Shown: positions 16,169 through 51,766, numbered from the stretch's first letter. The stretch is 64,000 nucleotides of DNA from Candidatus Latescibacterota bacterium (GCA_965205485.1 OZ242180.1:923016-987015), one strand, 5' to 3'. Numbers and translations: made by a program. The notes: generated by a model from the letters alone, not told the origin.

Positions 16169-19100
16169 TCAATTGGTTATGGTAGACGGCCTCTTCTGTC
16201 TAAGGCCTGGACTGACGGCGCTCACGCTGCCGCCGTCCGTCCCAACAAGAAGGGCGGACTCTCCATACACTGTCAGGGACTTTATAACGGTAACGCCGGC
16301 TTCCATGCGGTGGCTGCCCACGACCTCTCCGTCGAGAGAAAGAAACACAACCCACCCCTCGGAGGTCCCTGCAACGATTGTCTCCACTTCGTCTTCCTTG
16401 AGATGGACCAGACCGGTCACCCCGCCATCGAGGTCCCGGCGCCAGCGCTTCTTCCCCGTACCGCTCAACAGCGCCACGTGCCCGCTTTCGCTTCCCGCCG
16501 CGAATCCGTGTCCCGGAACCGTCACACCGTACCGGACGTCGTCTCCCAGGTTGGCCGTCCAGAGGATCTCTCCCGAAGTCGAATCCACCGTGTAGACATT
16601 TCCGTCCATGGCGCCGTAGACCGATTCCTTCACGCCGTCGCCATTCAGGTCCGCCAGGGCCAAAGCCGAGAAACAGGGGCCCCCGTTAACCGTCCACCGG
16701 ATCCTCCCGTCGGCCTCCAGCAGATTCGACGTGTAATATTCAGCGCCCACCAGGATTTCCTGCCTGCCGTCTCCCTCCACGTCGCCGACGACCATCGTCC
16801 GCGCGGCGTGGTGTTCGATCTGCCGCTGCCAGACTTCCTCTCCGTCCGACGCCAGCGCCCACACCAGCCACCCGTCCGTGGCTGTCAGGATCACCTGATT
16901 TCCGTCACCGGTCAGATCTGCCGTCGTCACCGCGTTCACATTCTGATCCACCCCGTGCGAATCTGAAAACCGGCGCTTCCAGCAGACCCCGCCTCCGGAA
17001 TCGAACAGCGTCAGCGCGCGGTCCCTTCCACCGGCCAGAAGTCTTCCTTCCTTAAGATCCGCGAGATGCACGGCGCGCACTTCGGCGCGTGTCTCGCGCG
17101 TCCAGCGAATCCGCCCTTCGGGGTCCAGCACGAGTACCTGCCCGCTGCCCGTCCCAACCGCAATCGAGTCAGCCTTCGCATCGGCGCATCGGACCGGTCC
17201 CCGGACCTGCGCCTCCCACAAACGCCTGAGGGACGTATCTTTCGGCACGAAACCGTATTTTCCCGGCGCCCTGCGATGCTCGTAAGGCGTGCCGGACCGG
17301 ACGGCCTCGCGCAGGACGTCCTCAAGACCGGCTTCCAGCGTGATCCGATGGGTTCCGGCCGTGAGTTTGTCCGCCTCTGGTTCCACCACCCCGTCAATAC
17401 AGATGCCCTCGGTCCGAGCCCGGGTCTCCTTGCTTGCGCGGACCTCACCCGCTCTCTCGCCCGGATACAGTACGATGTGCACCGGCACGTCGCATTCAAA
17501 CACCACGCCATTCGCCCACAGACCCGTCGCGTCAAGCAGTATCAGGTTTGATTCGGTCAACGCGAAAGCGGCGGCGGCGACCCTGAGCCCGCCTATTCGC
17601 GCTTCCCCGCCGTCAACGCCGAATACGGTCAGGCCGTCCGGGTGCGCCACCCTGACCCTGCCCTCTCCGATGCGCTCGATCCGCCAGGCATCGATCTCCG
17701 CTTCCGACCCCGCCACCATCAGGTTGAAATACCTTTCAACGTGTCCGGGCCGCCCGTGGAGCGCCTTGTGCTGGTTGAAGATCCGGATCGGGCCGTCCGC
17801 GAACGGATACAGTTCGTAGGGGTCGGTCCCTGCAACGCGGGCTTCCTCCGTCAGAAGCGACTTTTCCGAATCATCCGCATTCAGGAGCCGGAAATACACG
17901 CCCTCCTGTTCCACCGTCAGTTCGCATCCGTCCTGCCTGACCTCGCCCAGCGTCCGCCACAGGCACCTCAGATCGTAATCCGCGTCCCTGAGCAGCCTCA
18001 GCGAGTCCGCGATCAGAAAGAACCCGCCCCTCACCCAGAAGATATCCCGTGTCCAGTCCAGTCCGTTGTATTCCGGCACGACCGTACGCGTGAAGGCGGT
18101 CTTTCCGAAGGCCTCAGCCCACTTCAACGCCACCAGGGGCGGCATCTCCACGGTTTCACCGTCACAGATGGACACGACGGACGAGTGGTGTCGGGGCCGC
18201 TTCCAGATATAATCCAGATCCGCCAGCCACATCCGCCCCTTCCACGTGAGCCGCCCGATCGAGTTGCCGTCCTCGTGTCCGTGGGCGAAGGTTGACGTCC
18301 CGTCCAACAGGAGGTATTCGTCCCCGCTGTCGAAACCTCCGCGCAGAACCAGCTTGTCGAACGCTTCCTCGATCGCCACGTTCGCTCCGCCCTTTGCGTG
18401 CCGCTCCACCCAATCGTAAAGCGAACAGTTAAACGGCGCCACAGAGACCCCTGCCAGCCGATCGGGCGTGCGTTTCGGAAGCGCGCGGTAATAACAGCCG
18501 GGAAACGGCGCGCCGCCCATCCAGTCCAGCGCCCAGAGGTAGCTCGCGTCCTCATAGTACCAGGCCGCTGTGCAGAGCGCCATCGCGAGCTCGAGCGATA
18601 TCGTCTTGTTCTTGAGCGCCACGGCGTACCGCCCCTGCTCGATGTAGGACCACATGTCGCCGAAGCTCACCGGAACGCCGAGATTGTCCGTCACCTGTAT
18701 GCCGTAGTCGGCAAAAGTCCGGAGTTGCCCGTTCTCCAGGAAGCGGAAATCGTCCCGCTTCAAATCGTAGATCACCTGGTGATACGGCGCCAGCCAGCAG
18801 TAGCCCCACCACCCTCCGCCCGCATCGTCGTTCGGCTTGTAGCTGTTCGCCTGTCCGTCGAAAATCGCCCTGGAGTACCGGATCTGCTTCTCGAATCCCG
18901 TGATCCCGTAATAGTTCTGGAAATACTCCGTGCAAATCGAACCGCTCAGCCCCGCGAACGTCCAGTGGTTCTGCCGGATTTCCAGAGGCGGCGGCGTTTC
19001 GGCCTTGAAATAACGGGTGCCGGCCACGTAATTCGCGAGCCCCCACAGCACATTGGTGATCCGGAGGCGTTCCGCGTCGGTAAACGCATCGCTCTCCTCG

Positions 19101-19843
19101 ATCAGGTCCCAGACCAGGAACAGCCGCCACGCCCAGGAATAGATGAACAGCATATGCTCGAACAGCCAGTTCCCGGCATAGCGATTCCTGACCAGGTCCT
19201 CGTAGTAGAAGAGCGCGTCCCGGAACATCCGCGCGCAGCCGGGATCGTGGGTCAGGTGGTGGGCCAGACCCAGGAAGGTGCCCTGCTCGACAGGATAGTA
19301 GCTGAGATTGTCCCGGTACATCTCGGCCACCCAATCGCGGAAGGCCTCGGGCGTCATTTCCGGCAGCAGCGTCTCGTGAACCTCTGTCCGGGACAGATTC
19401 GTATACCCCAATCGCCCCCCGGTTTCTTCCAGTACGCGCTCCAGCACCTCGACCGCGTTGGCCGCGCCATCCAGCGTGCTGGCCCCCACCAGCAACGCGT
19501 TATAGCCGCAGTTCTCCGGATTGTGCACAGTCCTGATTGCATACCCGTCCCCGCCTGGATACCAGTCGTCCAGGAACGCGTATTGCCGCCGGTAAAGCGC
19601 CATGATCGAACCGTTGACCATCGCGTTGCCCAGCAGCACGCGGTGCCGGCCTTCCGGCAGGGGCGCCAGGCTTTCAGGATCTACGATCGGCAGGTCCACT
19701 CCCGCACGCGCGCGGATCATCTCACGCAGCCGCCGACCGAGACGCGCCCATTCCGGCTCTACCGGCGCCACGATCTCCGCCCCCTCCCGGAGGTCCGTGG
19801 TCAGGTGCATATCCTTCAACGTTTCAATGCGATCCTCGGCCAT
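16169..19843 (-). CDS. giant paralogue 1: heparinase II/III-like core with a C-terminal FG-GAP-type beta-propeller, no signal peptide
   Basis: 1224 aa. N-terminal block GRHRVLLGNAM...LYRRQYAFLDDWYPGGDGYAIRT. Central heparinase II/III-like motif LLLDGTSTFAHGHEDGNSI. C-terminal repeats of the DL(T/N)GDG..(E/Q)ILVG type. Intact frame. Confidence 0.8.
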   Translation of the reverse strand: MAEDRIETLKDMHLTTDLREGAEIVAPVEPEWARLGRRLREMIRARAGVDLPIVDPESLAPLPEGRHRVLLGNAMVNGSIMALYRRQYAFLDDWYPGGDGYAIRTVHNPENCGYNALLVGASTLDGAANAVEVLERVLEETGGRLGYTNLSRTEVHETLLPEMTPEAFRDWVAEMYRDNLSYYPVEQGTFLGLAHHLTHDPGCARMFRDALFYYEDLVRNRYAGNWLFEHMLFIYSWAWRLFLVWDLIEESDAFTDAERLRITNVLWGLANYVAGTRYFKAETPPPLEIRQNHWTFAGLSGSICTEYFQNYYGITGFEKQIRYSRAIFDGQANSYKPNDDAGGGWWGYCWLAPYHQVIYDLKRDDFRFLENGQLRTFADYGIQVTDNLGVPVSFGDMWSYIEQGRYAVALKNKTISLELAMALCTAAWYYEDASYLWALDWMGGAPFPGCYYRALPKRTPDRLAGVSVAPFNCSLYDWVERHAKGGANVAIEEAFDKLVLRGGFDSGDEYLLLDGTSTFAHGHEDGNSIGRLTWKGRMWLADLDYIWKRPRHHSSVVSICDGETVEMPPLVALKWAEAFGKTAFTRTVVPEYNGLDWTRDIFWVRGGFFLIADSLRLLRDADYDLRCLWRTLGEVRQDGCELTVEQEGVYFRLLNADDSEKSLLTEEARVAGTDPYELYPFADGPIRIFNQHKALHGRPGHVERYFNLMVAGSEAEIDAWRIERIGEGRVRVAHPDGLTVFGVDGGEARIGGLRVAAAAFALTESNLILLDATGLWANGVVFECDVPVHIVLYPGERAGEVRASKETRARTEGICIDGVVEPEADKLTAGTHRITLEAGLEDVLREAVRSGTPYEHRRAPGKYGFVPKDTSLRRLWEAQVRGPVRCADAKADSIAVGTGSGQVLVLDPEGRIRWTRETRAEVRAVHLADLKEGRLLAGGRDRALTLFDSGGGVCWKRRFSDSHGVDQNVNAVTTADLTGDGNQVILTATDGWLVWALASDGEEVWQRQIEHHAARTMVVGDVEGDGRQEILVGAEYYTSNLLEADGRIRWTVNGGPCFSALALADLNGDGVKESVYGAMDGNVYTVDSTSGEILWTANLGDDVRYGVTVPGHGFAAGSESGHVALLSGTGKKRWRRDLDGGVTGLVHLKEDEVETIVAGTSEGWVVFLSLDGEVVGSHRMEAGVTVIKSLTVYGESALLVGTDGGSVSAVSPGLRQKRPSTITN

Positions 19844-20069
19844 CGCGCATCCCTTGTAAAGGCAGTCACAAACTTGAAGCCTCTCAGTTTCACTTCCCGC
19901 ATTTCAATGGGCAGGCACCCACCGGGCGTGGCCACCGACTTCCGGCGACAAGAGCTCACCGACGTTCTGAGCGTAAACAGCCATCCTGCAGGACAAACTG
20001 CAGCAAGAACGACAACACAGGCTTTCCGACCGGATTTCTGGTCTGTGTTCATGGAATGTAGGTGACAGT

Positions 20070-20429
20070 TTGCCTCGATTCGCGTATCTTTCAGGTAGTC
20101 GCATAATCATCGATGTTCGGAGAATACTGACCGTGACAATAGAGACAATAAAAGAAATCGCAATTCCTGCATGTCGGGAATTCAGGGTAAAAAGATTGGA
20201 TCTGTTCGGATCATTGAGCCGGGGCCAGGGAACTGCTGTCAGCGACGTGGATCTGATCGTGGAGTTCGAGGATCCTACTATGTTTCCTTCGAAGAGGTTT
20301 TTCGGGCTTCTACACCATCTCGAGGACAACCTGAATTGCAAAGTTGATTTGCTTACGTTCAATGGACTCAAGAACCCCTACTTTCGTCGCAGCATCCTTG
20401 ACGAAAGGGTGAACATCTATGGACGATGA
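20070..20429 (+). CDS. minimal nucleotidyltransferase (MNT) antitoxin of an MNT/HepT pair
   Basis: Motif LFGSLSRGQGTAVSDVDLIVEF. The likely start is a GTG about 60 nt inside the ORF, preceded by GGAGAA. Low-GC islet. Confidence 0.8.
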   Translation: MPRFAYLSGSRIIIDVRRILTVTIETIKEIAIPACREFRVKRLDLFGSLSRGQGTAVSDVDLIVEFEDPTMFPSKRFFGLLHHLEDNLNCKVDLLTFNGLKNPYFRRSILDERVNIYGR

Positions 20430-20781
20430 GATACTCAAATACCTCTACGACATCAAGGATGCGGCCTCGGCAATCCTCAAGTTTGTTCAGGACAAGACCT
20501 ATGATGATTATCGAGAAGACGAACTGCTCAAGAGTGGCGTCGAACGAAAATTCGAAATAATCGGTGAAGCACTGAATAGATTGAAACGAGATAATCCGAA
20601 GTTACTCGATAGAATACGGGATCATCGCAGTATCATTTCATTCAGAAATATACTCGCGCATGATTACAACAGTATTGATCACACAATCGTATGGGGGATT
20701 ATTGAAGAAAACCTGGACAATCTCTATTCGGACGTGGGTAAATTACTCATCGATAATGAACCTGAATCGCCTGACGGATGA
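20419..20781 (+). CDS. HepT-like (DUF86/HEPN) toxin
   Basis: HEPN Rx4HxY motif FRNILAHDY. Overlaps the MNT gene by 11 nt. Confidence 0.8.
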   Translation: MDDEILKYLYDIKDAASAILKFVQDKTYDDYREDELLKSGVERKFEIIGEALNRLKRDNPKLLDRIRDHRSIISFRNILAHDYNSIDHTIVWGIIEENLDNLYSDVGKLLIDNEPESPDG

Positions 20782-20853: not shown

Positions 20854-23607
20854 TTACTCAACCGGTAGCTCGACCAGAACGCTCGTTTGATCCTCGGAAC
20901 TGAAGACGCGTCTCCCGTCCAGTTCGGCAAACGTCCCGCCGTGCAAGACCACCGACCCGGCACCGTCAGGTCCCCGGCGCACCAGAATGGCGAGGGCGTC
21001 CGTGGTCAGCCCGCCCGCAGTAACTGTTTCATCTCCCGTTCTGAAGACAGCCAGAGCGGATCCATCCGGGCCGCTTACCCGGATGCCGATCCCGCCATGC
21101 CCCGTCACCCGCATCGCCGTAACCGGTTCAGCCTCAGCGGAACGCAGCGGCTGAAGCAGGTGAAGGTAATGCACGCTCTCCACCGGCCCCGGCGTCGGAA
21201 ACCGCAGATAGGGCCGCCGATCCGCATCCCGTGCGGCGGGCGTGGAATCGATCCTGACGGTCGACGCATCGGGCCATAGGTGCCTGATGTGCATCCATGC
21301 CGCGCGTCCCTCGATTCTGGACGTCTCTCCGGCGACTGCCACCTTGCCGTACGGGCTCAGCAGCCGCCACTCGATCTGTCTGGGTTGCTTTCCGGCGGTT
21401 TCGATCTCATCGAACAGCACCAGGTACCGCAGGTCCGGGTCGCCCTGCGGCTTCAGGAACATCAGATGGCGGCGATAGGTATCCAGCAGGGGCCGGTACG
21501 CGTGCGCCGCCTCCCCCCTTACGTAATCGTAGTCCCTTGAGAAATAGGTCTCCTCGATCCGGCCGCTCTTCGAAATTTCCTCTGGTCCCAGCCATTGCAA
21601 TTCGTACTCACGCGGCACAGGGCTTTCCTCGTGCACCGTCGGCTGTCCCCGTCCATCCACCAGAATCGTGTTTCGCCCCGGTGTGCCCTGGTACCAGGCC
21701 GTCAGATCGTACTGCGCCTGCGTCAGCGCCGCCTCCCCCGTCTTCGGTGTCCGCGGCGGCGACAATAGACGCTCCCCGAACGCGGTGAGCGTAAACGCAT
21801 TCTTGTCCCCCTGTTCCTTACTCACTTCCGGTCCGGACGTGAACGTGACGTGTACCCCTTCCGTGTGAAGCGTGTCGTATAACTTGACCAGCCCCAGGTC
21901 CCGGAAGTGAAACCCGGCCACGTCTTTCTTCGGAGCCGCCGGCGGCAGGCTCTCGTCGTAGAACAGGAACTCCCAGGGCCCGTGGAAATAGAGCCCCGTC
22001 GCCGCCGCAACTCCCAGCGTATACGTTCCGTCCATCTCCTCAACCGCCTTGGCGATCTCGTGTTCACCTGTAAATGCGATGCCCCTCACACGCCGCCCTC
22101 CGGACATCAGCATCAGCATTGCCTGCCCGGTATCCGACCGGTACTTACGCAGGGATGCCCGGATCTGGCCGGCGCGCAAGCTGGCGAATTCGAGGGCCGT
22201 CTCCCCCCGTTCTTCCGTCAGCGCCACCGGTCCAGCCAGGCGATCCACGATGTCCCCGCCGGCGTCGAAGACCTCCATAGAAAGGACCTCGACCCGGTCG
22301 CCCTCAACCCGAAGCGTGACCCTGTCGATCCCTTCCACGCGTTCGATATTCTGCCGATCCCGCAGGAGGCCATTCACTTCGATCTGCATCCCGCCGGTCC
22401 CGGCATCCCATCGCAGGGAGACCGTATAAAGGGTTTCAGGATGGTAGTGGACTTTGTCCCGGTTATACCAGTACGCCGGGTAACCCTTCATATCGGGCCG
22501 CAGGTCGTGCTTCAGGGCCAGCCACTGAAGCGCCGGGTCCCGCAGTCTGCCGGCGTGCGCCAGAAGGCCCGCCCGATCGTTATAATGCCCGCGCGACCTG
22601 AACATCTCCATCCCGAAAATCAGAAAGTGCGACAACTGGCGCAGCGGCCCGGTATCGAACAGGTCCGGCCCTCCGTTTCGGGCAAGCGCCTCCATAAACC
22701 GACCCCCGTCGCTCAGGCAGACCCCCAGCCAGCCGCGCCCCTCCATCCGCTCTCCGTCTCTCCCATAGGCCGCCGGCAGCAGGTAATCCCGCGTGAGCAC
22801 CAGACCCATATCCAGCCAGTCCCGCGCCTCTTCGACCTCGTACAGCAGCCCCAGACCCGCCAGTCCCTCAAGCGGTATGCTCCGCCACCTGTGGTTATTC
22901 GCAAGGGACCCCCGACGCGCCGCCGGGTCCTGCGTCAGCCAGTACGCATCCTTCTCGCACAGTTTCCGCCCCTTCTCGCGCAGTCCCGCAAGCAGACGTT
23001 CGCGTTCCTCCCGGGAGAATCGACCGGGAATCCAGTCGTAGACAATCACCGCTCCCGACAGAATCATGGCCGCCTCCATATCCCAGGGATCGGCAGCCGG
23101 ACCCCAGTTCTCCCAGCCCGCGTACGCCAGCGCCCAGGCCTTGGCGCGCCTGGCGAAGACCTCCTCTCCCGTCAGCAGGTATGCGAACGCGTACAACGGG
23201 CCATAGTATTGCATCGCGTATGCGTAAGACAGAAAATCGTAGGTCGCCTTCAGAAACGACCCGTCGTAACTGCCATCGGGTAAGCGGCTGTTGGACGCTC
23301 CCGCAGGCGGGTCCTTCGGGATCGGGTTTCTCAACGTCAGCCTGGCCGCCCGGACGATTCCCTCGGCGCACTCCCGGTACGGTTCCCGCCGGGCCATTTC
23401 GCGCAGACGCGGCACGTCTTCAGCCGTGAAGAAAAGGTAGGGATGCGTGCGTTCGGCCTCCAGCAACGCCCCGCTGATCCCCCGGTTTCCCAGCAGGTCC
23501 CTGATGTTCACAGGCTCACCCCCGAAAACCGAACTCCATGAAACCGCCATTGAGGCAACGAGTGGGCAGACCCCCGCCCATTCTGGTTTCGAAATGAAAC
23601 GCATCAT
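20854..23607 (-). CDS. secreted heparinase II/III-like polysaccharide lyase family protein
   Basis: 917 aa with an N-terminal signal-like region. Alpha/alpha-toroid-like N-terminal half and a beta-sandwich C-terminal half. The family assignment rests on overall architecture and is moderately certain. Confidence 0.65.
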   Translation of the reverse strand: MMRFISKPEWAGVCPLVASMAVSWSSVFGGEPVNIRDLLGNRGISGALLEAERTHPYLFFTAEDVPRLREMARREPYRECAEGIVRAARLTLRNPIPKDPPAGASNSRLPDGSYDGSFLKATYDFLSYAYAMQYYGPLYAFAYLLTGEEVFARRAKAWALAYAGWENWGPAADPWDMEAAMILSGAVIVYDWIPGRFSREERERLLAGLREKGRKLCEKDAYWLTQDPAARRGSLANNHRWRSIPLEGLAGLGLLYEVEEARDWLDMGLVLTRDYLLPAAYGRDGERMEGRGWLGVCLSDGGRFMEALARNGGPDLFDTGPLRQLSHFLIFGMEMFRSRGHYNDRAGLLAHAGRLRDPALQWLALKHDLRPDMKGYPAYWYNRDKVHYHPETLYTVSLRWDAGTGGMQIEVNGLLRDRQNIERVEGIDRVTLRVEGDRVEVLSMEVFDAGGDIVDRLAGPVALTEERGETALEFASLRAGQIRASLRKYRSDTGQAMLMLMSGGRRVRGIAFTGEHEIAKAVEEMDGTYTLGVAAATGLYFHGPWEFLFYDESLPPAAPKKDVAGFHFRDLGLVKLYDTLHTEGVHVTFTSGPEVSKEQGDKNAFTLTAFGERLLSPPRTPKTGEAALTQAQYDLTAWYQGTPGRNTILVDGRGQPTVHEESPVPREYELQWLGPEEISKSGRIEETYFSRDYDYVRGEAAHAYRPLLDTYRRHLMFLKPQGDPDLRYLVLFDEIETAGKQPRQIEWRLLSPYGKVAVAGETSRIEGRAAWMHIRHLWPDASTVRIDSTPAARDADRRPYLRFPTPGPVESVHYLHLLQPLRSAEAEPVTAMRVTGHGGIGIRVSGPDGSALAVFRTGDETVTAGGLTTDALAILVRRGPDGAGSVVLHGGTFAELDGRRVFSSEDQTSVLVELPVE

Positions 23608-23767: not shown

Positions 23768-24902
23768 ATGGCAGCCGTAGTCCTAAAAGACGTCCGAAAG
23801 ATCTATAACGGAAACACCGTCGCGGTAGACGACTTCAGCCTTCGCGTCGAGGACGGCGAGTTCGTGGTGCTGGTGGGGCCCTCCGGATGCGGAAAATCGA
23901 CCACCCTCCGGCTGATTGCCGGCCTGGAGGAGGTGGACGGGGGCGAAATCCACATCGACGGATGCCTGACGAACGACCTTCCGCCCAAGGACAGGAATAT
24001 CGCGATGGTCTTCCAGAACTACGCCCTCTACCCCCACATGGACGCCTACCGGAATATGGCCTTCGGGCTGAAACTGAGAAAATATCCCAGGGAGGAGATC
24101 GACGACCGGGTGCGTGAGGCGGCGGACATCCTGGGAATCCGGGACCTGCTGCACCGAAAGCCGAAGGAACTCTCAGGCGGACAGCGTCAGCGGGTAGCCC
24201 TTGGCCGTGCTATCGTTCGGAAGCCGAAGGTCTTCCTATTCGACGAGCCCCTGTCCAACCTGGACGCCAGACTGCGGGTTCAGATGCGAACGGAACTCAG
24301 CAAGCTGCATGCACGGCTCAACGCGACCATGATTTACGTCACCCACGACCAGGTCGAAGCGATGACCATGGGCGACCGCCTCGTCGTCATGCAAGACGGA
24401 CGGATCCAGCAGGTCGGAGCCCCGGTCCACCTGTACCGGAGACCCGCGAACCGTTTCGTCGCCGGCTTTATCGGCAGCCCGGCAATGAATTTCCTCGAGG
24501 GCGAACTCGTCCGGGATGCCGGCCTGGCCTTCCGGGGAGACGGCCTCCGCCTCCCTGTACCGGACCGGCACCGGGACAGCCTGTCAGGATACATCGGCCG
24601 CCGCGTCATCCTTGGAATCCGCCCCGAGCACATCCACTACGCGTCTTCAGCCCTCGGACCCGGGGAGTCAGAAGACGTTTCCGCGAAGAGTCGACCTCGT
24701 CGAACCGATGGGACATGAGACCTTGCTCTACCTGACCGTCGGACGCGCCTCCTGCGTGGCCAGGGTGACCGCGGATCCCGCACCCGCGGTGGACAGCGAG
24801 GTCCGGCTCGCATTCGACCTCTCCGCCGTCCACTTCTTCGACCGGGAGACCGAAGCCGCGCTGCTCCGGATACACCCGAATAGCAAACCGACGCGGGGCT
24901 GA
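23768..24902 (+). pseudogene. sugar ABC transporter ATP-binding protein (MalK/UgpC-like), frameshifted near 24656-24665
   Basis: Walker [10 protein letters not shown], signature [10 protein letters not shown], Walker B VFLFDEP. The TOBE-domain tail ([15 protein letters not shown]) continues in the +1 frame after the homopolymer tract GGACCCGGGG. Most likely a single-base sequencing indel, otherwise a true frameshift. Confidence 0.7.
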
Positions 24903-24908
24903 AGGCGC

Positions 24909-25778
24909 TCAGGACTTCACCGCTCCCGACATCAGACCCGACGTCAACCGTTTCCTGACCAGCAGAAACAGCAGCACGGTGGGAACCGTCGCCACCACCG
25001 CGGTCGCCATCAGCAGGTTCCATTCCACCACGTTGTTCTTTTCCCACGCATAGAGCGCCATCGTGATCGGCTGCATTTCCCTCCGGGAAACGAGCACCAG
25101 CGCGAAGATGAACTCGTTCCAGGCGGTCACGAACGCAAAGATCGCGGTCGTCGCCAGCCCGGGTCCGGTCAGCGGCAGGGCGATCCTGAAGAGCATGCCC
25201 GTCCGGGACAGGCCGTCGATCATCGCGGCATCTTCCAGCTCTTCGGGAATGTGCCTGAAAAACCCCGCCAGTATCCAGATTGAAAAAGGCAGGGTAACGG
25301 CGGTATTCACCAGAATCAGGCCGCTGTAGGTGTCGAGAAGGTGGAGTGCCTTCATCACCTTGAACAGGGGAATCAGAACGATCACGGGGGAAAACATCTG
25401 CATCACGAGGATGCCCAGACCGAACACCCCGCGCCCGCGGAACCTGATGCGCGCCATCGCGTAGGCCGCCGGAGTCGCCAACGCAATGTTCAGAACCGTG
25501 GTTCCCGTGGCGATAATCATACTGTTCACCAGATGGCGCGCCATTGGAATCCGGACGAAGACGTCCACGTAATTCTGCCACGCAAACAGCCTGGGCACCA
25601 GCGTCGCCGGCGATTGGAACACTTCGCCCAGCGTCTTCAGGGAGGTCCCCGCAACCACCAGAAACGGAAACAGCGCGAAGGCGGCGACGCCCGCTATCAG
25701 GAGCGCCCGCAATACTTCGGCTGGCCGTACGCGGAACGGTCCCAACACTATACCTCCCGCCTGTAGAACACCCGCCAC
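24909..25778 (-). CDS. sugar ABC transporter permease (MalG/UgpE-like)
   Basis: EAA loop EAAMIDGLSRTGMLFRIALPL. Six TM segments. Confidence 0.8.
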   Translation of the reverse strand: MAGVLQAGGIVLGPFRVRPAEVLRALLIAGVAAFALFPFLVVAGTSLKTLGEVFQSPATLVPRLFAWQNYVDVFVRIPMARHLVNSMIIATGTTVLNIALATPAAYAMARIRFRGRGVFGLGILVMQMFSPVIVLIPLFKVMKALHLLDTYSGLILVNTAVTLPFSIWILAGFFRHIPEELEDAAMIDGLSRTGMLFRIALPLTGPGLATTAIFAFVTAWNEFIFALVLVSRREMQPITMALYAWEKNNVVEWNLLMATAVVATVPTVLLFLLVRKRLTSGLMSGAVKS

Positions 25779-26615: not shown

Positions 26616-26636
26616 GCGGCCTCCTTAAAAGCTGTC

Positions 26637-27903: not shown

Positions 27904-27921
27904 TTACGCTTCTCCTGTCTT

Positions 27922-29892: not shown

Positions 29893-30011
29893 GAATATCG
29901 TACCGAGCCTATCTCAGTCGGAAGATTCCGCAGTGGGTGTCACTGCGTTCCGCACGCGGGGCGGCGGAACATCGGCAGGATCTGCCAGGGGAACTTGGCG
30001 AACGTTGCCAA

Positions 30012-34384: not shown

Positions 34385-34415
34385 TTCCTTCTCCAAATGA
34401 TGTCCGCGGCGCGAC

Positions 34416-42300: not shown

Positions 42301-42629
42301 ACGATCACGTGCCCCGCGTCTTCCAGAGAATCCGGTGCCGTGCGGATTACCCAGCCGCCGGGCCCGGGCCAGATCCGGTCCGTCAGATCGTATGCGCGGA
42401 AGTACATCGTCCTCACAAACGCGCTGTTCATCATGTTTCCCAGCGCGATCACGTGGCGTCCGCCCGCGTCGAGGAGCGCGTCGGGCAGGATCTCCACGCC
42501 GGCCGAAAGCACATCCTTCAGGGCGGATTGAAGACGCTTCGCCGCGGCCTGATACGGCTCGGAATCGGGCGCCGAAATACAGACGCCGGCAGCGAGATCC
42601 GTCTCGTGAACGGGTTTGCGGAAGTTCAT
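39337..42629 (-). pseudogene. giant paralogue 3, frameshifted near 40575-40582
   Basis: The N-terminal ORF (42629 down to about 40580) ends at ...VRLATLFWSDEGTQQ and then becomes garbage. The propeller part continues in the ORF 39337-40563 (ARTFAMSAEASGYRVEGEG...). One missing base restores colinearity with paralogues 4 and 5. Confidence 0.7.
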
Positions 42630-42711: not shown

Positions 42712-45700
42712 CTACCGGTAGCATTCCAGCGCGCCATCGTTCCGTCCCACCAGCAGGCCGCCGTCCGGCCACGCGGATGCCCAGCCAGCCGCCGTTGCGT
42801 CCGGATTCCCGGTGTGCGTCGTACGAATCTCTCCCGATCCGCCCAGACCGACGACCGTTCCGCCTCCCAGGGCCGCCAGAGACCCACCATCTCCACGCGG
42901 GGCCAGCCCGACCACCGGTTCGGCCAGAAACCGGCTCCACAGGCGTGTGCCGTCCGCCGCGAAACACTGCGCAAATCCGTTGGATGCGCCCGCGTACACC
43001 CGACCCTCACTGGCGTTGACCGACACGACAGCACCACCGACGTCCGCATCCCACAACACCTTCCCATCCCTGCGATACACGATCAACTGACGGTGGTTGG
43101 TATCCACGCCACTGAGCACCTCCTCCCATCCATCCCCGTCCACGTCGCCACGTCGACGCACTTCGACCACGACGGAATCGACCAGCTCATGATATCCGGC
43201 CGCGACAGCGTCTGCTCACACGCCCCGTCCGATTCGAATACCCGGATACATCCGTGAATCGACGGGTCCGCCATCCCCGCCAGCACCTGACGTCGGTCCC
43301 CTTGCCGCAGCCGCGCCACCGCCAGGCACGTGGGCGGACCCCACTGGCAGGCGGAACGCCACAACAGATTGCCCTCGTCGTCAAACGCGTAGACGTGGCG
43401 GTCCGCGCATCCGGCCAGAATCTCGTCTTTCCCGTCGCCGTCGATATCGCCGGCCGCCAGGCTGAGGACTTTACAGTTCAGCCACGTCCAGTAGTCCCAG
43501 TTCATCGGTTGCCACTCGAGTTGACAGGACCATACCTCGCGGCCCGACCCGTCCAGCCGGTGTACGGCTTCCGCCTCCCCGCCAGCCACGACCCCGCCGT
43601 CTGCAAGGGCGAGTATCGTGCGTATGCCTCCGGATATTGAATGGGTCCATCGTATCCCGCCGTTCAGGTCGAACGCCGTGATGGCTCCGCTGTCGTCGCC
43701 CGCGAAGCAGCCCCCCTCCCATGCATCGACCGACGCCACCCTTCCGCCGCATGTGCCGCTCCACACCGGCTTCGACTCGCCCCCTGCGATGACAAACGGC
43801 CCCGGCTCGGTTGCTTCGACGATGCGGCCGGCCATTGGAAGTACGACTGCATCGGCTACCAGGTTCACGCCCTCGCTTTCCGCCGCGAACGAGACCGTCA
43901 CCGCCCTGCCCTGCCCCTCGATACGATAGCCGGACCCCTCCGGTTCAAGCGTATACGAACGAGCCTGCTCCAGATCGTCGCTCCAGAAAAGAGTAGCGTA
44001 CCGCATCCCTTCGCCCGGCTGAAGCGGCTTCAATGAGCGCTGGATCCAACGCATGCCGCCCTTTTCCAGGGCTGCTGTCACCGGTATCAGGTCCTGCGAC
44101 GCGCAGCCCGCGTGCCGCATATTCAGTGTCGCATTACCCTGAACCGAGCGCAGGGACCCATCCGACAGCGTTACGTCTCCGAGCACGTGCCAGCGGCCCT
44201 CAACCAGGAATTCACCTGCCACCTGCGCCTGGACCTCGTCCACCACGAGAAACCACCCCGCCTTGCCGTATACGATATGGCGATACCAGTCGCCCTGACC
44301 GGGATATCGCATCGAAGTGCCCGCCACCGAAAACGCCTCACCCTCCTCCACGTATTTCAAGGTGGCGTATCGGGACTCACGTCCCGGGCCCGCTCCGTCC
44401 ACTGCGATGTTCACTCCGTTGTGGTCGCGCACCGAGGCCGGACCCACGCGATCTCCGAACCAGTTCCGTCCCCGCGCCGTATACCGCACAATGCAGTTGC
44501 CGTCCTGATACGAATGAGACCCGCCCGATATGCCGTCCAACAGCAGATAGTCGTCGTCGTCCGACCATCCGGACCGGAAGAAGACCTTATCGAATGCCTG
44601 CTCGAACGGCACGTCGCGCAGGTACACGCCCTCGGGCGCAAACCCGCTGGAACCCTCGAGCGAATCGTAGAACAGCCGCGAGAGCGGCGCCACGCCCACC
44701 CGTCCCAGCCTCTCCGGCGCTATCGCCCGGCGTCCCGTCACCCATGATCGAAGCGGCTCTTCCGGTCCCTTTATGGATCGTCCGGCCAGGGCATCTTCGT
44801 CAGAGACGCCGCAGGGGTGCAGGTATTCATCGTTCCCCGTGGCCGTCGCGGCCATCAGAAAGTACTGCTGCGGGCCTCGTTCCAGGTTGCTGTGCGCAAT
44901 CAGCGCCCTGTCCACACCCTCCAGGAACGGTTTGCTCGAAACGTAATCCGAGCGCCCCGACGCCAGCGCAAAATCCGCAGTGTTGAACAGTGAAGCGGCC
45001 CACTGATGGCCCCACGAGTCGCACACCGGCTTGTTGGACGTCATCTGCGGCGCAAAAAAGACCTCCGCAAGCTTCATCCACGCCCTGCCCTCGGCCAACC
45101 CATGCACCTGGTGGAAATACCGTCCCCCATAAAAGAGGTCAAGCGCCGACCGGGTCTGGTGGTTCTGCCGAACCCTGTTCACGCCGACGTGGCTCAGAAA
45201 TCCGTTGTTCCCGGCCCCTTCTCCCGATCGGTATAGCGCCAGGAGGGCGTCCAGGGTCTCCTCTCGCATTTCTGTCGGGACGGACGGATGGTTTTCCAGG
45301 ATCGTGAACGGAAGCAGCATGGTCCTCAGGAACCCGTGAATCTGCGGAGGGTCCGGCAGATGGCGCTCAAACCACCGCGTACGCGCAAATTGGCAGACCT
45401 GCCTGCAGAACATCTCCATCAACGCTTCATCCCCGGTCCGGACCGCCAGCATCCCGATGTCTCCGATCGCGCGCATATAGGTCCAGTCGCCCGCCCCGCT
45501 GGTATATTCCCGCTCCAGGTGGGCGTCGCCGGCCTCCAGCCGCTCCCGCGCCGGCCTCAGATACAGATCCGACCACCTCCCCGGCTGCACGCGGTACTGG
45601 AACGGTAGCGTGATACCCGTCTCGGCGATGGTGTTGCTGAGGGCATCCGCCGCCCCGGTAACGTCCTCCGCGCTGCTCACGCCCACGACCACCACGTGAC

Positions 45701-46016
45701 CTACCTCGTCCAGGGAGTGCGGCGCGGTACGGACCGCCCACCCGCCGGGGCCCGGCCAGACCCGGTCCGTCAGATCGAATGCCCGGAAATACAGCGCCTT
45801 CAGGAACGCGCTGTCCATCATGTTCCCAAACGCGATCACATGGCGCCCGCCCGCATCGAGCCGCGCGTCCGGCAGGATTTCAACGCTATCCGAAAGCGCA
45901 CCGTGCAGGGCCGCCTGAAGCCGCTTCGCAGCGGCCTGATACGGCTCGTCACCGGGCGACGAAATACAGACGCCGCCAGTGAGATCCGTCGCGTGAACAG
46001 GTTTGCGGAATGTCAT
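42712..46016 (-). pseudogene. giant paralogue 4, frameshifted near 43145-43150
   Basis: The main ORF 43083-46016 ends at ...SWSKCVDVATWTGMDG. The tail (VEVRRRGDVDGDGWEEVLSGVDTNHRQLIVY...) is in the ORF 42712-43170. Adding one G (GCGAC to GCGGAC) gives CVDVADVDGDGWEEV, which matches paralogue 5. Confidence 0.7.
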
Positions 46017-46268: not shown

Positions 46269-48245
46269 GTGTCGCAAAGGATTCGCAGTGTCATGATGGT
46301 CGCACTTGCCGCAGGTCTTGCATGGAGTTGCGGCCGCGAACGCGTTTTGGAGTCTTCCGGGTCGGATGACCGGATTGGCCGCGCGCTGAGCAAGGTGGCG
46401 GCAGCGGGCGATGGTCGTGCATCTGGGGCGCTGGTGGAGGCGTCTGTGTCGCGAGATGGCGCGCCCGCGGCACATGTGATGGTCGAATTTGCGCGTTCCA
46501 TTGCCGGGCGGAAGCCGGACTATCGGTGGTCGGGAACGACCGATGCCAAGGGGCGCGTTACAGTGGAGATATCCAGTCCGGCGACGGGTTATTTTCAAGC
46601 GCGCGCGTCTCAGGATGGCGCCGTGACGGGCCACTGGTCCAGCATCCCGGTCAATGATGGTTACAGGACATTGGTCGCGTTGCCCGTTGGCGGAAAGGCG
46701 CGGGTGGCGCGATCATCCAGGATAGGTGTGATTGCCATCGGTCTTGTTCCGCATCTGAGCGGTGTGTTCAGTTCGCCCCGTCCGCCAATGAGAAACGCGT
46801 CTGAAATGGCTCTTGAAGAGATCAATAACGCGCACGGTGAGCCGAGATTCGAGTTCATCATTGAAGATAGCCGCAGCACGATAGATGGTGCCGTTGAGGC
46901 TTTTAAGAAGCTGATTCATCGAGATGGCGTCCTCGCCATTCTCGGTCCTCGTACTTCAAGTCAGGCCGTGGCGGCCTTTCCCATCGCGCAAGAAAACCGT
47001 GTTGTGGCACTCGGTCCGACTTCTGCCGCACGAGGTATCAGTGAGATGGGGGACTTTCTCTTTCGCGCGAGTCTCACCGTAGATCGGTACGTGCCCGGCG
47101 GCATCGAGAAGACGCGGGAGGCGCTCGGCTACAAGCAGGTGGCGACGATATTCGATGACGCGGATGTTTTTTCCCGAAGCAGCGACGAGGTCATTCGGAA
47201 CGCGCTCACGGAAGGCGGCGTTGACATTGTGACGACAGAGACTTTCCAGACCGCCGATGCCGATGTTTCCGCGCAACTGACTCGGATAAAAGCGTTGAAT
47301 CCGGATGCCGTCTTTATTTCTTCTCAAGCTGTAGACATGGCTGATATTCTGATTCAGGGACGGCAAGTCGGTATTCCTGCCGAGGTTCCCTTTATCACGT
47401 CTTCGGTGCTGACGTTAGACGGCATAAAGCGTGCAGGCGTCGCTGCCGAGGGTGTTATTGCGTTTACGGCCTGGAGCAGCATGGCCGATACACCTGGTAA
47501 TCGCGCCTTCGTCGAGAATTATACGTCAAGATACGGGGTTGAACCCAATGTGATTGCCGCACAATCCTACGCCAGTGTTTATATCTTGACGCAAGCAATT
47601 TCAGATGCCCGCTCTGCATCGGGATCTGAGACTCCGGAATCCGAAAATATTCGGGATGCGTTGCGCAATGTTCGGAATTTCGACACGGTGCTGGGTCCGT
47701 TTTCTTTCGATAACGTTGGCGACGGGGTCTACAACCCGACGGTATTGACTGTCAAGAACGGCGCACTTGCTGTTTTCGATCCAACGCCTGCCGCGGTTGC
47801 GACCGCGATAATCGGCGAGACGAATGACAGCGGTTTGACCGGAAAAGCGACTTTCGCACAGTTCGGCGATAATATCAAACTGGTCGTCTCGCTGGCGAAT
47901 GCGTCCGCAGGCGAACACGCCGTCCATATCCATGCAAAGGGCGATTGCAGTGCGTCAGACGGGACATCGGCCGGCGGGCATTGGAATCCCACGGGCGTAG
48001 CGCACGGCAAATGGGGAGAAGGTGAATTTCACCTCGGCGACATCGGCAATGCGAGCGTCGATGACCAGGGCACAGGAAGTATTGAATTGACGACGAATCT
48101 CTGGGAGATCAATACGGGTTCAGCAATTGATATCGTTGGCAAGGCGATCGTCGTCCATGCGCGCGCTGATGATTTCGTCTCGCAACCTTCGGGCAATGCC
48201 GGCGCGCGTATCGGTTGCGGTGTGATTGTGTTGGACCAGCAATAG
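46269..48245 (+). CDS. secreted three-domain fusion: leader, a carboxypeptidase-regulatory-like beta-sandwich, a LivK-type periplasmic binding domain (PBP1), and a C-terminal Cu,Zn superoxide dismutase
   Basis: GTG start with an AAGGAGAG Shine-Dalgarno. PBP1 blocks IGVIAIGLVPHLSGVFSSP...ALEEINNAHG...LAILGPRTSSQAVA. SodC signatures HAVHIHAKGDC, GGHWNP, HLGDIGN, AIVVHARADD, GNAGARIGCGVI. Confidence 0.8.
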   Translation: MSQRIRSVMMVALAAGLAWSCGRERVLESSGSDDRIGRALSKVAAAGDGRASGALVEASVSRDGAPAAHVMVEFARSIAGRKPDYRWSGTTDAKGRVTVEISSPATGYFQARASQDGAVTGHWSSIPVNDGYRTLVALPVGGKARVARSSRIGVIAIGLVPHLSGVFSSPRPPMRNASEMALEEINNAHGEPRFEFIIEDSRSTIDGAVEAFKKLIHRDGVLAILGPRTSSQAVAAFPIAQENRVVALGPTSAARGISEMGDFLFRASLTVDRYVPGGIEKTREALGYKQVATIFDDADVFSRSSDEVIRNALTEGGVDIVTTETFQTADADVSAQLTRIKALNPDAVFISSQAVDMADILIQGRQVGIPAEVPFITSSVLTLDGIKRAGVAAEGVIAFTAWSSMADTPGNRAFVENYTSRYGVEPNVIAAQSYASVYILTQAISDARSASGSETPESENIRDALRNVRNFDTVLGPFSFDNVGDGVYNPTVLTVKNGALAVFDPTPAAVATAIIGETNDSGLTGKATFAQFGDNIKLVVSLANASAGEHAVHIHAKGDCSASDGTSAGGHWNPTGVAHGKWGEGEFHLGDIGNASVDDQGTGSIELTTNLWEINTGSAIDIVGKAIVVHARADDFVSQPSGNAGARIGCGVIVLDQQ

Positions 48246-48323
48246 GAGGTCGAGTCTGACAACCTTGATTCGTCACTTCTTCCGGGACGCAAAGTCGAAT
48301 ACAGGCAAGCGGATAGAGGCGAT

Positions 48324-48364
48324 TTGACGTCGGATTGCCAGGAAACTTCAGGTGACTTGACGTG
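48324..48364. promoter_or_regulatory. second pair of TTGACGT(C) motifs
   Basis: GATTTGACGTCGG and GACTTGACGTGAA lie in the convergent gap between the SOD fusion and giant paralogue 5. They resemble the pair at 35555-35595. Confidence 0.25.
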
Positions 48365-48452
48365 AACGGAAGATACATCCTTCCGGACGACCTTTTCGGC
48401 CCGTTCTGGATGGATTCCCGGCGGCGCGGCGTTGCTTTTTCTGGAATTGCGT

Positions 48453-51400
48453 CTAACGGAAGAGTTCGAGCGCGCCGTCCTTTCGGCCCACCAGCAGGCC
48501 GCCTTCCGGCCATCCGGATGGCCATCCGTAACCGTCACTTCCGAATCCCCTGCGTCCGTCGTCCGGATCTCTCCCGAGCCGTCGAGGCTCACCACGCGCC
48601 CGCCTCTCAGTGCCGCCAGGCATCCTCCATCTCCCGCGGGCGCCAGACCGGCCACGGGCTCGACGAGAAGCCGTCGCCACAAGCGGCTGCCGGCGGCGTC
48701 GAAGCACTGCACGAAACCGTTGGACGCCCCGGCATACAGGCGCCCATCGTGGACCTCCGCGGCGAGCACGGCCGCGCCCATATCTGCGTCCCAGATCACC
48801 TCGCCGTCCCGCCCGTAGACGATCAACTGCCGGTGATTGGTATCCACCCCGCTGATCACCTCGTCCCGGCCGTCCCCGTCCACGTCCGCTACGCGCAGGC
48901 AGCGCGACCAGGAGGGAATCGACCAGTTGACAATATCCGGGCGCCGAAGGGGCTTCCCGAGCGTTCCGTCCTTCGCGAAGACCAGCGTGTGCGCGTGAAT
49001 GGCCGGGTCCGCCAGGCCGGCGAGCGTCTGACGCTCCGGACCATCCTCCAACCGCACGGTATCCAGACACACCGGCGGTCCCCACTGGCAGGGGGAACGC
49101 CATAGTTGGCTGCCGGCGGCGTCGAGCGCGTAGACATGACGGTCCGCGCATCCGACCAGTATCTCTTCACGTCCGTCGCCGTCGATATCGCCCGCCGCGA
49201 GGCTCAATACCACGCAGTTCTTCCTGGACCAGCTATCCCAGTTCATGGGCTGCCATTCGATCCGATAGGACCAGACGGTTTCGCCCGTTGCATCCAGCCT
49301 GTACACGGTCTCTTCGTCCCCTCCCGCTGCGGCGCCCCCATCGGCCAGGGCAGCAAGCGCCCGTACGCCGCCTTCGATCTCCCGTTTCCAGAGAACGTCG
49401 CCGTCGGAGTTGAACGCGGTCACTCCGCCGTCGTCGCCCGCGAATCCTCTATCCTTCCCGATATCCAGCGCCCTCACGGCATCCGCGCACCGCGTTCGCC
49501 AGACGGGTTTCGCCTCGCCGCCGGCGATCTGAAATGGCGAGGAATCGGTCGCTTCCACAGCCCGACCGGCCGTGGGCAGCGTTGCGCCGGATGCAGAGAC
49601 CTCCGGGGTTTCAGCGGTTTCCATGAGTGCAACCGTGACGGGCTCGCGGCCCCCCTCGATTCGAAAACCAGTCTTCTGTTCGACCAGCCTGAAATCCCTG
49701 CCATCGCCGACCGCGTCGGTCCAGAAAAGCGTCGCCATCCGGGTCCCCGTTCCCGGCCGGAGCGCCGCCAGGGAACGTTGGACCCACCGCGAGTGGTCTT
49801 CCGCGCACCAATAGTCCGAAGGGACAAGCTCCTGGCATCCGCTCCCCGCGTGCCGCATGTTCAACTGCGCGTCACCCTGAACCGACTGCAACAGGCCGTC
49901 TGAAAGGGACGCTTCACCCAGGAGGTGCCACCGGCACTCCACGAGAAACTCTCCCGCGACCACGGGCCAGACCTCGTCGATCACCAGAAACCATCCTTCA
50001 CGGCTGTACACGATATGCCGGTACCAGTCGCCCTGCTCAGGATAGGTCATCGACGTGCCCGCCACGGCAAGGTTCTCCCCTTCATGCAGGTACCGCAGCG
50101 CCACGTACCTGGACTCGCACCCCGGGCCGGCGCCGTCTACGGACACGCTCACGCCCGTGTAGTCCCGGACCGTCGCCGGCTGGTGGCCTCCGGCAAACCT
50201 GAACCAGGAGGCGCCGCGGCTGGTGTAACGCACGATGCAGTTGCCGTCCTGATAGGAGTGCGAGCCCCCCGAGATCCCGTCCAGCAGAAGATAGTCGTCC
50301 TGGTCCGTCCATCCGGAACGGAAGAACACCTTGTCGAACGTCTGTTCGTAGGGCAGATTCCTCAGATAGACGCCGTTTACCGGCGCAAACGTCGTGTATT
50401 CTTCGAGAGAGTCGTAGAACAACCGCGACAGGGGGGCCACACCGACCCGGCCCAACCGTTCCGGCACCGCCGCCGGCCGCCCCGTCACCCAGGTCCGCAG
50501 GGGCTCTTCGGCGCCTCGAATGGTCCGTTCCGCCGCCGCGCCTTCGTCAATGGATTCACAAAGCTGCAGGTATTCGTCATTGCCCGTTACCGCCGCGGCC
50601 ATACGGCAGTATTGTTCGGGGCCTCGTTCCAGGTTGCTGTGCGCCATGAGCGCACGGTCCACGCCCTCCAGGTAGGGCGGGCTCGAAAAGTAGTCCATCT
50701 TCCCTGCCGCCAGCGCGTAGTCCGCCGTGTTGAACAGCGAGGCCCCCCATTGATGGCCCCACGAGTCGCACACCGGCTTGTTCGATCCCATCTGCGGCGC
50801 AAAGAAGACCTCCGCCAGCTTCATCCACGCCAACCCCTCCGCGAGCCCGTGTACCTGGTGGAAATACCGGCCTCCGTAAAACAGATCGAGCGCGGAACGG
50901 GTCTGATGGTTCTGGCGCACCCGGTCCACGCCCACGCAACTGAGCAGCCCCGAATTGCCGGCACCCTCCGCGGACCTGAAGAGTCCCAGCAGCGCTTCGA
51001 GCGTCTCCTCCCGCTGTTCGGCGGGAAGCGAGGGATGGTTTTCAAGAATCGTGAACGGCAGCAGAAGCACGCGGATGAACCCGTGGATCAACGTGGGGTC
51101 CTCCAGCGTCCGCTCGAACCAGCGCGTACGGGCGAAGTGGCGGATCTGATGGCAGAACATCGACATCAACCTGTCGTTTCCCGTCTGCACCGCGAGCATC
51201 CCGATATCGGCGATAACCATCATATAGGTCCAGTCACCCGATCCTCCGCCGATGGATTCCTGCTCGATGTCCCGGTTGCTCTTGGCCAGCAACTCTTGCG
51301 CCGGCTCCACGTACAGATCGGACCATGTGCCCGGATGTACCTGGTATTGGAACGGCAGTACGGGACCGTTTTCAGTCTATCGCACCGGCCAGCGCCCCGG

Positions 51401-51766
51401 CCGCATCGCCAATGTCCTCCGCGCTGCTCACGCCCGCCACCACAACGTGCCCCACTTCTGCCAACGAATGGGGCATTGTGCGCACCACCCGCCCGCCGGG
51501 ACCCGGCCAGACGCGGTCGGTCAGGTCGTAAGCCCGGAAGTAGAGGGTTCGCAGGAACGCGCTGTCCATCATGTTCCCCAGCGCGATCACGTGCCGGCCG
51601 TCTGCATCCAGCTTATCGTCCGGCAGCACGTCCACGCGCCCGAAAGGGTCTCCTCGAGGACCGCCTTCAGACTGCCGGCCGCATCCTGGTAGGAATCCCC
51701 CGCCGGCGCCGAAATACAGACGCCTTGCCCAAGATCCGTTTCATGAATCGCAGGTGAGAATGCCAT
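48453..51766 (-). pseudogene. giant paralogue 5, with three single-base frameshifts (about 51638-51648, 51369-51376 and 48520-48535)
   Basis: The true N-terminus MAFSPAIHETDLGQGVCISAP...EETLSG lies at 51766 downward. It continues in the 87-aa ORF (VDVLPDDKLDADGRHVIALGNMM...) and then in the long ORF 48029-51310. The C-terminal tail (GWPSGWPEGGLLVGRKDGALELFR) is in the ORF ending at 48453. Each junction lies at a short homopolymer. Confidence 0.65.

Follow-up and report, generated by a model that had tools for sequence, protein, structure and literature searches.

Anciently diverged paralogues with a lyase-type core and a C-terminal propeller in a sponge-associated Latescibacterota lineage

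What do five giant paralogous proteins encoded by a Candidatus Latescibacterota bacterium of a sponge-associated lineage do, and on which side of the membrane do they do it? The genes, named c1 to c5, lie on the minus strand of a 64,000-nt stretch of DNA (GCA_965205485.1, OZ242180.1:923016-987015; this whole stretch is the window in what follows). The original prediction, made from this stretch alone, took them for five genes of common architecture whose products are either intracellular or non-classically exported oligosaccharide-processing proteins, or structural or sensor proteins built on a lyase fold. We arrive at a reading that we hold to be somewhat on the probable side: c1-c5 are cytoplasmic lyase-type enzymes that act on imported uronate-containing oligosaccharides as part of a polysaccharide-utilisation locus, with the paralogues differing in specificity. 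The five genes are as follows, with orthologues named from L001/L002, a related metagenome-assembled genome (MAG; GCA_028877215.1, 91-94% DNA identity) in which the same array is present and every gene is intact, or given by their own labels:

16169-19843, minus strand: c1, an intact open reading frame (ORF) of 1224 aa with the signature RQNH ... GYCW ... AHGHEDGN and a Tyr at the lyase Tyr position; intact orthologue P0001, 92% identical.
35845-39186, minus strand: c2, an intact ORF of 1113 aa that opens the direct tandem c2-c3-c4; the L001 orthologue has 1107 aa.
39337-42629, minus strand: c3, split by a 1-bp deletion, with a repaired product of 1097 aa; the L001 orthologue is intact and also has 1097 aa.
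42712-46016, minus strand: c4, split by a 1-bp deletion, with a repaired product of 1101 aa; intact 1101-aa orthologue P0055, 94% identity.
48453-51766, minus strand: c5, with three 1-bp indels and a repaired product of 1104 aa; the L001 orthologue is intact, 1104 aa.

Homology of the five genes, at the positions first proposed for them, is borne out together with their three-module build, and so is the direct tandem of c2, c3 and c4; a divergent Peripla_BP_6-SodC gene separates c5 from it. The copies fall into distant subfamilies. In amino-acid sequence c1 and c2 are 25% identical, each of them is 25-26% identical to c3-c5, and c3-c5 are 64-72% identical to one another; matches between subfamilies have tblastn E-values of 1e-20 to 1e-49. 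Related chromosomes carry as many as eight paralogues, adding to the c1-c5 set another c1-like copy and a tandem pair that stands apart. The array is retained, with its genes whole, in related genomes and is neither a local nor a recent amplification, contrary to the view that so many neighbouring copies are an unusual local expansion. We take the five paralogues to be anciently diverged. All five are under purifying selection: the ratio of nonsynonymous to synonymous substitution rates (dN/dS) against orthologues is 0.215 for c1, 0.158 for c2, 0.172 for c3, 0.177 for c4 and 0.180 for c5. What did not survive closer inspection is the uniformity of the listed sequence motifs, since c1 has RHRVL and LYRR and lacks WPGPGG, and c3 and its orthologues carry C for D in DGISGG.

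The build of these proteins is fixed throughout the family: an N-terminal domain of the type found in glycoside hydrolase (GH) family 115, an (alpha/alpha) toroid followed by a beta-sandwich as in the clan of polysaccharide lyase (PL) families PL12, PL15, PL17, PL21 and PL35, and a C-terminal eight-bladed propeller of the BamB/FG-GAP type. Structure prediction, done on c2 with AlphaFold2 from an 82-sequence alignment, gave a three-module model (mean predicted local distance difference test, pLDDT, 87.5; predicted template modelling score, pTM, 0.90) with the following parts:

38737-39186, minus strand: alpha/beta domain at the N-terminus (aa 1-150), folded like the N-terminal domain of GH115, GH20, GH84 and GH67.
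36967-38727, minus strand: catalytic-type core, made of a helical toroid (aa 154-420) and a beta-sandwich (aa 440-740).
Conserved residues of that core: R245, N280, H281, K325, D329, H333, D481, K482, R486, H506, Y508, D510, R586 and D600.
35869-36879, minus strand: eight-bladed beta-propeller (aa 770-1106); a disordered linker (aa 733-761) connects it with the core.

The c2 core shows the fold that defines the clan, an (alpha/alpha)n toroid and then an antiparallel beta-sandwich. Its best Foldseek matches in the PDB are heparinase III of PL12 (4mmi, 4.8e-15) and then Atu3025 of PL15 (3a0o, 5.7e-15), followed by BT4657, GAGase II (PL35), heparinase II (PL21), exoHep, Alg17c (PL17) and dermatan-sulfate epimerase 1. 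Sequence profiles point the same way, more faintly: the family profile reaches heparinase III with an E-value of about 7e-4 and aligns RQNHxT weakly with the HNHGTW motif of PL17 (E 0.31). The proposal of a heparinase II/III-like core thus holds for the fold and for weak profile matches and fails in an ordinary Pfam search, which finds nothing in the first ~740 residues of any copy. Hepar_II_III_C (PF07940) and Hepar_II_III give no match in the window copies at E<=0.01, and none to the c2 core even at E<=10; Hepar_II_III_C matches 3 of 16 diverse family cores, at best with E 9.3e-5, and neither Pfam nor NCBIfam holds a model for the N-domain or the core. When the core was aligned by hhalign with a DSE-like/Hepar_II_III_C protein encoded in the window, only the C-terminal sandwich aligned (probability 79%). 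A homologue search that started from this DSE-like gene returned 12 matches, 10 of them at 64-91% identity, and no bridging profile was obtained.

Pfam matches are confined to the C-terminal part (PQQ_2/BamB-like, Beta-prop_CGLA and FG-GAP). PQQ_2 scores 57.3, 28.5, 53.8, 28.2 and 51.0 bits in c1 to c5 (cut-off 27.6), and FG-GAP exceeds its cut-off of 22.1 in c1, c3 and c5 and stays below it in c2 and c4. A propeller with FG-GAP elements had been predicted and is present; the run of DxDGDG repeats that went with it is not, since each protein has only one or two such loops and the remaining blades are BamB/PQQ-like. The only invariant residues of the propeller are Trp and Gly, which fits a non-catalytic role. 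A PL11-like catalytic propeller was considered and rejected: the sole match, to the PL11 propeller lyase 4cag, is limited to one 22-residue Ca-loop (E 0.003), and invariant polar residues are lacking.

Is the core an active site? In PL12, PL15, PL17, PL21 and PL35, the catalytic set consists of an Asn (or Asn-His), a Tyr 53-57 residues further on and a His of the sandwich (PMC12088678, Table 4). We counted conservation, in c2 numbering, over 184 distinct family members down to 25% identity. R245, N280, H281, K325, D329, D481, K482, R486, H506, D510, N512, W584, R586 and D600 are each kept in 170-184 of the 184; N280, which opens toroid helix 280-299 in the AlphaFold2 model, is present in 180, its neighbour H281 in 183, the sandwich His H506 in all 184 and D510 in 181. 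The Asn-to-sandwich-His spacing is 226, compared with 184-220 in the five lyase families. Two positions divide the family. In c1, the Asn-His pair is followed by a Tyr at +56 from the Asn (GYCW) and by AHGHED in the sandwich; in c2-c5 a His takes the place of this Tyr (GHQW or CHGW) and the sandwich motif reads SHSY. Two residues after the sandwich His, the c1 type has another His and the c2-c5 type a Tyr or Phe. Position 333 is Tyr in 48 members (c1 type) and His in 130 (c2-c5 type), and residues 333 and 508 covary, with H/Y in 121 members, Y/H in 47, H/F in 7, H/H in 2 and Y/Y in none, although this covariation may stem from few evolutionary events. Judged by these motifs, c1 appears to keep the canonical Asn-His...Tyr...His set and c2-c5 to have a variant active site. 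As a separate observation, c3 and its orthologues have Cys in place of the usually conserved Asp of YLLLDG.

The near-invariance of fourteen polar core residues among the 184 members, together with the catabolic character of the locus, favours an intracellular enzyme that processes oligosaccharides over a structural or sensor protein, the other option of the original prediction. A role without catalysis, as carbohydrate-binding, scaffold or sensor proteins on an inactive lyase fold, would account for the loss of the canonical Tyr from most members, for a large propeller of a kind often used for binding and for the lack of an assigned Pfam catalytic family. We nevertheless regard it as very improbable: the conserved polar residues occupy lyase-type motif positions in members as little as 25% identical, the proteins have no signalling, DNA-binding or membrane domain, and the copies sit in catabolic loci under purifying selection. 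The same fold could also serve another chemistry, that of a uronate C5-epimerase like dermatan-sulfate epimerase 1 or of some other non-eliminating enzyme on oligosaccharides, especially in the c2-c5 type. The His that most members carry at 333 would suit this alternative, as would the UxuA gene of the locus, which fits release of saturated uronates. We think it unlikely, in that lyase families score slightly above dermatan-sulfate epimerase 1 in the structure matches, the c1 type retains the full canonical set, and an epimerase would be less economical in cytoplasmic catabolism that has no obvious downstream use for its product.

A lyase-type enzyme remains the reading that we prefer, and its chemistry can be sketched. 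The toroid-sandwich cleft would bind a uronate-containing oligosaccharide, the conserved Asn of RQNH would neutralise the carboxylate, and the His/Tyr pair would take the C5 proton and protonate the leaving O4, amounting to beta-elimination; the propeller, packed on the core, would act as a lid or substrate platform and not as a second catalytic site. A bolder proposal, doubtful on present evidence, is that the c2-c5 type, the family majority, constitutes a mechanistically distinct class in which the catalytic Tyr and His have been swapped between the toroid helix and the sandwich loop and the obligatory propeller contributes to the substrate site. Such a class could be (i) a new PL family with a rearranged dyad, or (ii) a non-lyase activity that is exerted in the cytoplasm on acidic oligosaccharides and is confined to host-associated and polysaccharide-degrading bacteria.

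In which compartment would such enzymes work? The claim that the window copies lack signal peptides stands: none of the five has a hydrophobic N-terminus, a transmembrane (TM) segment or an in-frame upstream extension, and a stop codon lies just upstream of each start. The companion claim, that the two ordinary heparinase II/III genes of the window do encode signal peptides, finds no confirmation: one (20854-23607) has a conserved N-terminus of weak hydrophobicity, and the other, HepB-like (61960-63933), continues past the window end with its N-terminus out of view. By a hydropathy heuristic rather than a trained predictor, the maximum over 10 residues within the first 45 aa is 0.6-1.8 in c1-c5 versus 2.5-3.7 in signal-peptide members of the family. 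The other end is equally plain, as Pfam finds no C-terminal sorting domain (the check covered type IX secretion system, T9SS, and PEP-CTERM tags) and the propeller stops 7 residues before the C-terminus. The family as a whole, however, is not intrinsically intracellular. Clear signal peptides, often accompanied by a further N-terminal region of 200-400 aa, occur in about 20 of the 184 members, which belong to Paenibacillus (1562 and 1573 aa), Armatimonadota, Lentisphaerae and Pirellulaceae; to this extent the predicted intracellular family has to be narrowed to some of its members. Median cysteine content is 1.78% in members without a signal peptide versus 1.01% in those with one (P = 1.6e-8), a contrast that taxonomy confounds, and falls to 0-0.06% in Paenibacillus. 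More cysteine in the signal-less members fits a cytoplasmic location for them, and the window copies have 15-23 Cys per protein.

The secreted relatives in four other lineages suggest a different solution, in which the window copies are exported without a classical signal, by a non-classical route or as a partner's cargo, and, like ordinary secreted lyases, work in the periplasm or on the outside of the cell. They carry Ca-binding motifs of the FG-GAP type, and DUF6785 membrane proteins adjoin the array and recur near family genes elsewhere. We consider export distinctly unlikely: besides the missing signal peptide, TM segment and T9SS or PEP-CTERM domain, there is no twin-arginine (Tat) motif; the N-terminus opens directly with the first strand of a folded domain in all orthologues, the c2 fold beginning at about residue 20; and the cysteine content is above that of the signal-peptide members. 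Cytoplasmic action on imported substrate is the arrangement that we would place in the context of the locus, whose other genes are these:

10453-12432, minus strand: a DUF6785+DUF6784 protein, the third of its kind in the window (Pfam).
12605-14606, minus strand: UxuA mannonate dehydratase and a CN_hydrolase protein, downstream of c1 (Pfam, synteny with the relative L003); hexuronate catabolism.
20854-23607, minus strand: the protein with DSE-like_N (DUF4962) and Hepar_II_III_C domains (Pfam), whose N-terminus is conserved and weakly hydrophobic.
23768-27950: a sugar ATP-binding cassette (ABC) importer, with a MalK-type ATPase on the plus strand and two BPD_transp_1 permeases and an SBP_bac_1 substrate-binding protein (SBP) on the minus strand (Pfam, L003 gene set).
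27922-31997, minus strand: two polytopic DUF6785+DUF6784 membrane proteins (27922-29892 and 30012-31997) with 10-11 predicted TM segments (Pfam, hydropathy).
32030-35300, minus strand: a beta-helix (Pel9A-like) and PKD protein whose N-terminus is hydrophobic, and a dioxygenase of the PhyH family (Pfam, also for L001).
61960-64000, minus strand: a HepB-like gene (heparinase II, PL21; NCBIfam HepB positions 119-772, E 3e-127), its frame open to the window end and its N-terminus beyond.

The locus is syntenic in relatives and also holds an enolase-superfamily (MR_MLE) enzyme; along the minus strand the order is c4, c3, c2, PhyH, beta-helix/PKD, with PhyH directly downstream of c2. We posit that the secreted beta-helix/PKD protein and the ordinary heparinase II/III proteins would release oligosaccharides outside the cell, that the ABC system, possibly together with the DUF6785 membrane proteins, would import them, and that c1-c5 would trim them in the cytoplasm, yielding products that could feed hexuronate catabolism through UxuA and the enolase-superfamily dehydratase. 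The five paralogues might then divide among them the various linkages or decorations present in a complex acidic glycan. The DUF6785 proteins may be transporters of the pathway; their genes recur close to family members in a Latescibacterota MAG from Lake Baikal (L058) and an Armatimonadota MAG (L059). An apparent fusion of the two families in L058 was dismissed as an ORF-extension artefact, the genes being separate and nearby.

Not all of these genes read through. The original prediction missed frameshifts in c3, c4 and c5 and only c1 and c2 are intact ORFs. Single bases are deleted in c3 at about 40577-40585 (CC to C) and in c4 at about 43146-43149 (GGG to GG); c5 has deletions at about 51637 and about 48525 and an insertion at about 51375 that creates a TGA. 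Similar 1-bp indels relative to L003 occur in an ABC permease gene (26148), in MalK (24688 and 24867) and, at 24898, in the stretch that separates MalK from the second permease. They leave MalK with a 316-aa ORF versus 371 aa in L003 and the first permease as a 190-aa ORF that has no Pfam match. Could c3, c4 and c5 be genuine, very recent pseudogenes in a pathway that is partly being lost along with its damaged importer? All nine indels are uncompensated and fall in these two gene sets, and in the ~41 kb compared with relatives none was seen in c1, c2, the DSE-like gene, the two alignable DUF6785 genes (10453-12432 and 27922-29892), SBP or UxuA. Such loss is possible, although we give it a clearly minor chance. 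After repair no other stop interrupts c3, c4 or c5 over 3.3 kb each; their dN/dS values match those of the intact copies and their active-site residues are unchanged; four of the five lesions in c3-c5 shorten short homopolymers by one base relative to L001/L002 (GGG to GG, CC to C, GGGG to GGG, TT to T); the sequence comes from a single-contig metagenome assembly of 5.13 Mb; and orthologues are intact in every relative examined. Most likely, therefore, the indels are assembly errors or, with less probability, very recent lesions, and not marks of old pseudogenes. Programmed frameshifting was rejected, the five sites having no common motif and the orthologues being in frame.

Several observations weigh against our view of c1-c5 as cytoplasmic lyases, beyond the heuristic scoring of signal peptides and the taxonomic confounding of the cysteine contrast. 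As to location, Ca-binding FG-GAP motifs are typical of extracytoplasmic proteins. As to chemistry, the Tyr is absent from its canonical position in c2-c5 and in most of the family (130/184), the mapping of residues is based on motif spacing and weak hidden Markov model alignments, and dermatan-sulfate epimerase 1 uses the same catalytic residue set, so that epimerase activity would be compatible with it. KduI and KduD were not seen in the window, and UxuA points to catabolism of saturated glucuronate. Gene context in distant phyla is uninformative, with no consistent partner genes at the loci in Paenibacillus (L061) and Anaerolineae (L032), and the literature searches brought up no characterised member. 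Finally, frameshifts affect c3, c4 and c5 and some of the importer genes in this assembly, a clustering in two gene sets for which we have no explanation.

Other features of the neighbourhood are recorded here in their own right. The gene between c4 and c5 (46269-48245, plus strand) fuses Peripla_BP_6 to a Cu/Zn superoxide dismutase domain, has a signal-like N-terminus and is 98% conserved in L001. Two genes for PhyH-family Fe/2-oxoglutarate dioxygenases (34416-35300 and 52796-53575, minus strand) flank the c2-c5 array, and further PhyH homologues are found close to family members in L039, L043, L049 and L053. The three DUF6785+DUF6784 paralogues have ~660 aa each, with dN/dS of 0.03-0.08 for the two measured. 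A toxin-antitoxin pair (20070-20781, plus strand), consisting of an MntA-type nucleotidyltransferase (NTP_transf_2, E 7e-12) and a HepT-like RNase (E 4e-20) that overlap by 11 nt, is inserted between c1 and the DSE-like gene, where L003 has only 96 bp. Between UxuA and c1, a 1.48-kb insertion (14722-16205) of lower G+C content (0.54), absent from L003, carries two minus-strand ORFs (15365-15814 and 14977-15372) that have no Pfam match. Near the window end lies a gene for an S-adenosylmethionine-dependent methyltransferase (60876-61925, plus strand) with a Sterol_MT_C domain (E 7e-23), a domain unusual in bacteria; upstream of it (58437-60717) are genes for an ApbE flavin transferase and an FMN_bind protein.

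How widespread is the family? An exhaustive profile search with the N-domain and core returned 1,425 representatives at 50% identity for E<=1e-3, 1,161 for E<=1e-10 and 728 for E<=1e-30, and most lengths among the 150 matches listed are 1,100-1,800 aa. Matches in genomes come from Latescibacterota, Gemmatimonadota, Verrucomicrobiota, Planctomycetota, Lentisphaerota, Armatimonadota, Chloroflexota and Paenibacillus. The nearest relatives are MAGs from the sponge Rhopaloeides and chromosome-level Latescibacterota assemblies; carbohydrate-active enzymes are reported to be enriched in sponge Latescibacterota (Robbins et al. 2021, PMC8163846). A further tandem pair of family members on the related Latescibacterota chromosomes L020-L023 (e.g., OZ244744.1, 1978582-2003267) has one member of the Y/H and one of the H/Y type, 28-29% identical to c1 and c2, and is flanked by tetratricopeptide repeat (TPR)/GWxTD-like genes ~100 kb from the main locus.

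Literature searches (FG-GAP with heparinase or lyase; DUF6785) found nothing that describes the family or DUF6785. New, in the sense of undescribed in the literature and libraries searched, are the fixed three-module architecture, the two modules that have no profile, the size of the family with its multi-copy expansion, and the Tyr/His exchange. If these proteins are lyases, they would add a new family and a new architecture to the heparinase/alginate-lyase clan and offer a handle on the acidic glycans eaten by sponge symbionts, and the Tyr/His exchange would amount to a natural experiment on the catalytic dyad of the clan. No concept is overturned.

Among known systems, heparinase III of PL12 (HepC 4MMH/4MMI; BT4657 5JMD/5JMF/4FNV) comes closest as the sole solved family reached by the sequence profile, in the beta-sandwich, and it too has an Asn in a toroid helix and a His in the sandwich. 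It differs in being secreted, in having neither the GH115-type N-domain nor the propeller, and in its low identity (10-13%); its Tyr294 has a Tyr counterpart only in the c1 type, with His in c2-c5. The exo-type lyases of PL15 (Atu3025 3A0O; exoHep 6LJA) and the oligoalginate lyases of PL17 (Alg17c 4OJZ; AlgL17 9IRQ) resemble the family in the N-H motif, which aligns with the PL17 HNHGTW, and in the sandwich His-x-His-x-Asp that c1 keeps as AHGHED. Their sequence similarity is not significant, however, their accessory domains are others, and c2-c5 have HSY instead of HxH, so that a metal site may be missing. These lyases are exo-acting on oligosaccharides, with an extra domain that closes the cleft. 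The PL35 GAGases (8KHV, 8KHW) and heparinase II of PL21 (2FUT) use the Asn/Tyr/His scheme with an Asn-to-Tyr spacing of 54-55, but they are two-domain, secreted proteins of 11-12% identity that sequence comparison does not detect. Dermatan-sulfate epimerase 1 (6HZN) employs the same residue types for abstraction of the C5 proton, yet it is an epimerase and not a lyase. With the GH115 alpha-glucuronidases (4ZMH, 6NPS, 7PXQ, 5BY3) only the N-domain fold is shared, at 14-16% identity and with no GH115 Pfam match; this domain, which also occurs in GH84, GH20, GH67 and GH138, is fused here to a lyase-type toroid and not to a TIM-barrel hydrolase. The propeller, with its PQQ_2, FG-GAP and Beta-prop_CGLA matches, resembles the eight-bladed BamB/PQQ-type and FG-GAP propellers (BamB 4IMM, 4HDJ) and that of lambda-carrageenase, here with one or two Ca-type loops and without a polar residue shared by all members. 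Exo-lyases that have this fold and act in the cytoplasm are already known from PL15 and PL17, as are the fold and the type of chemistry, and what the comparison points to is probably a new lyase family and not a new kind of biology.

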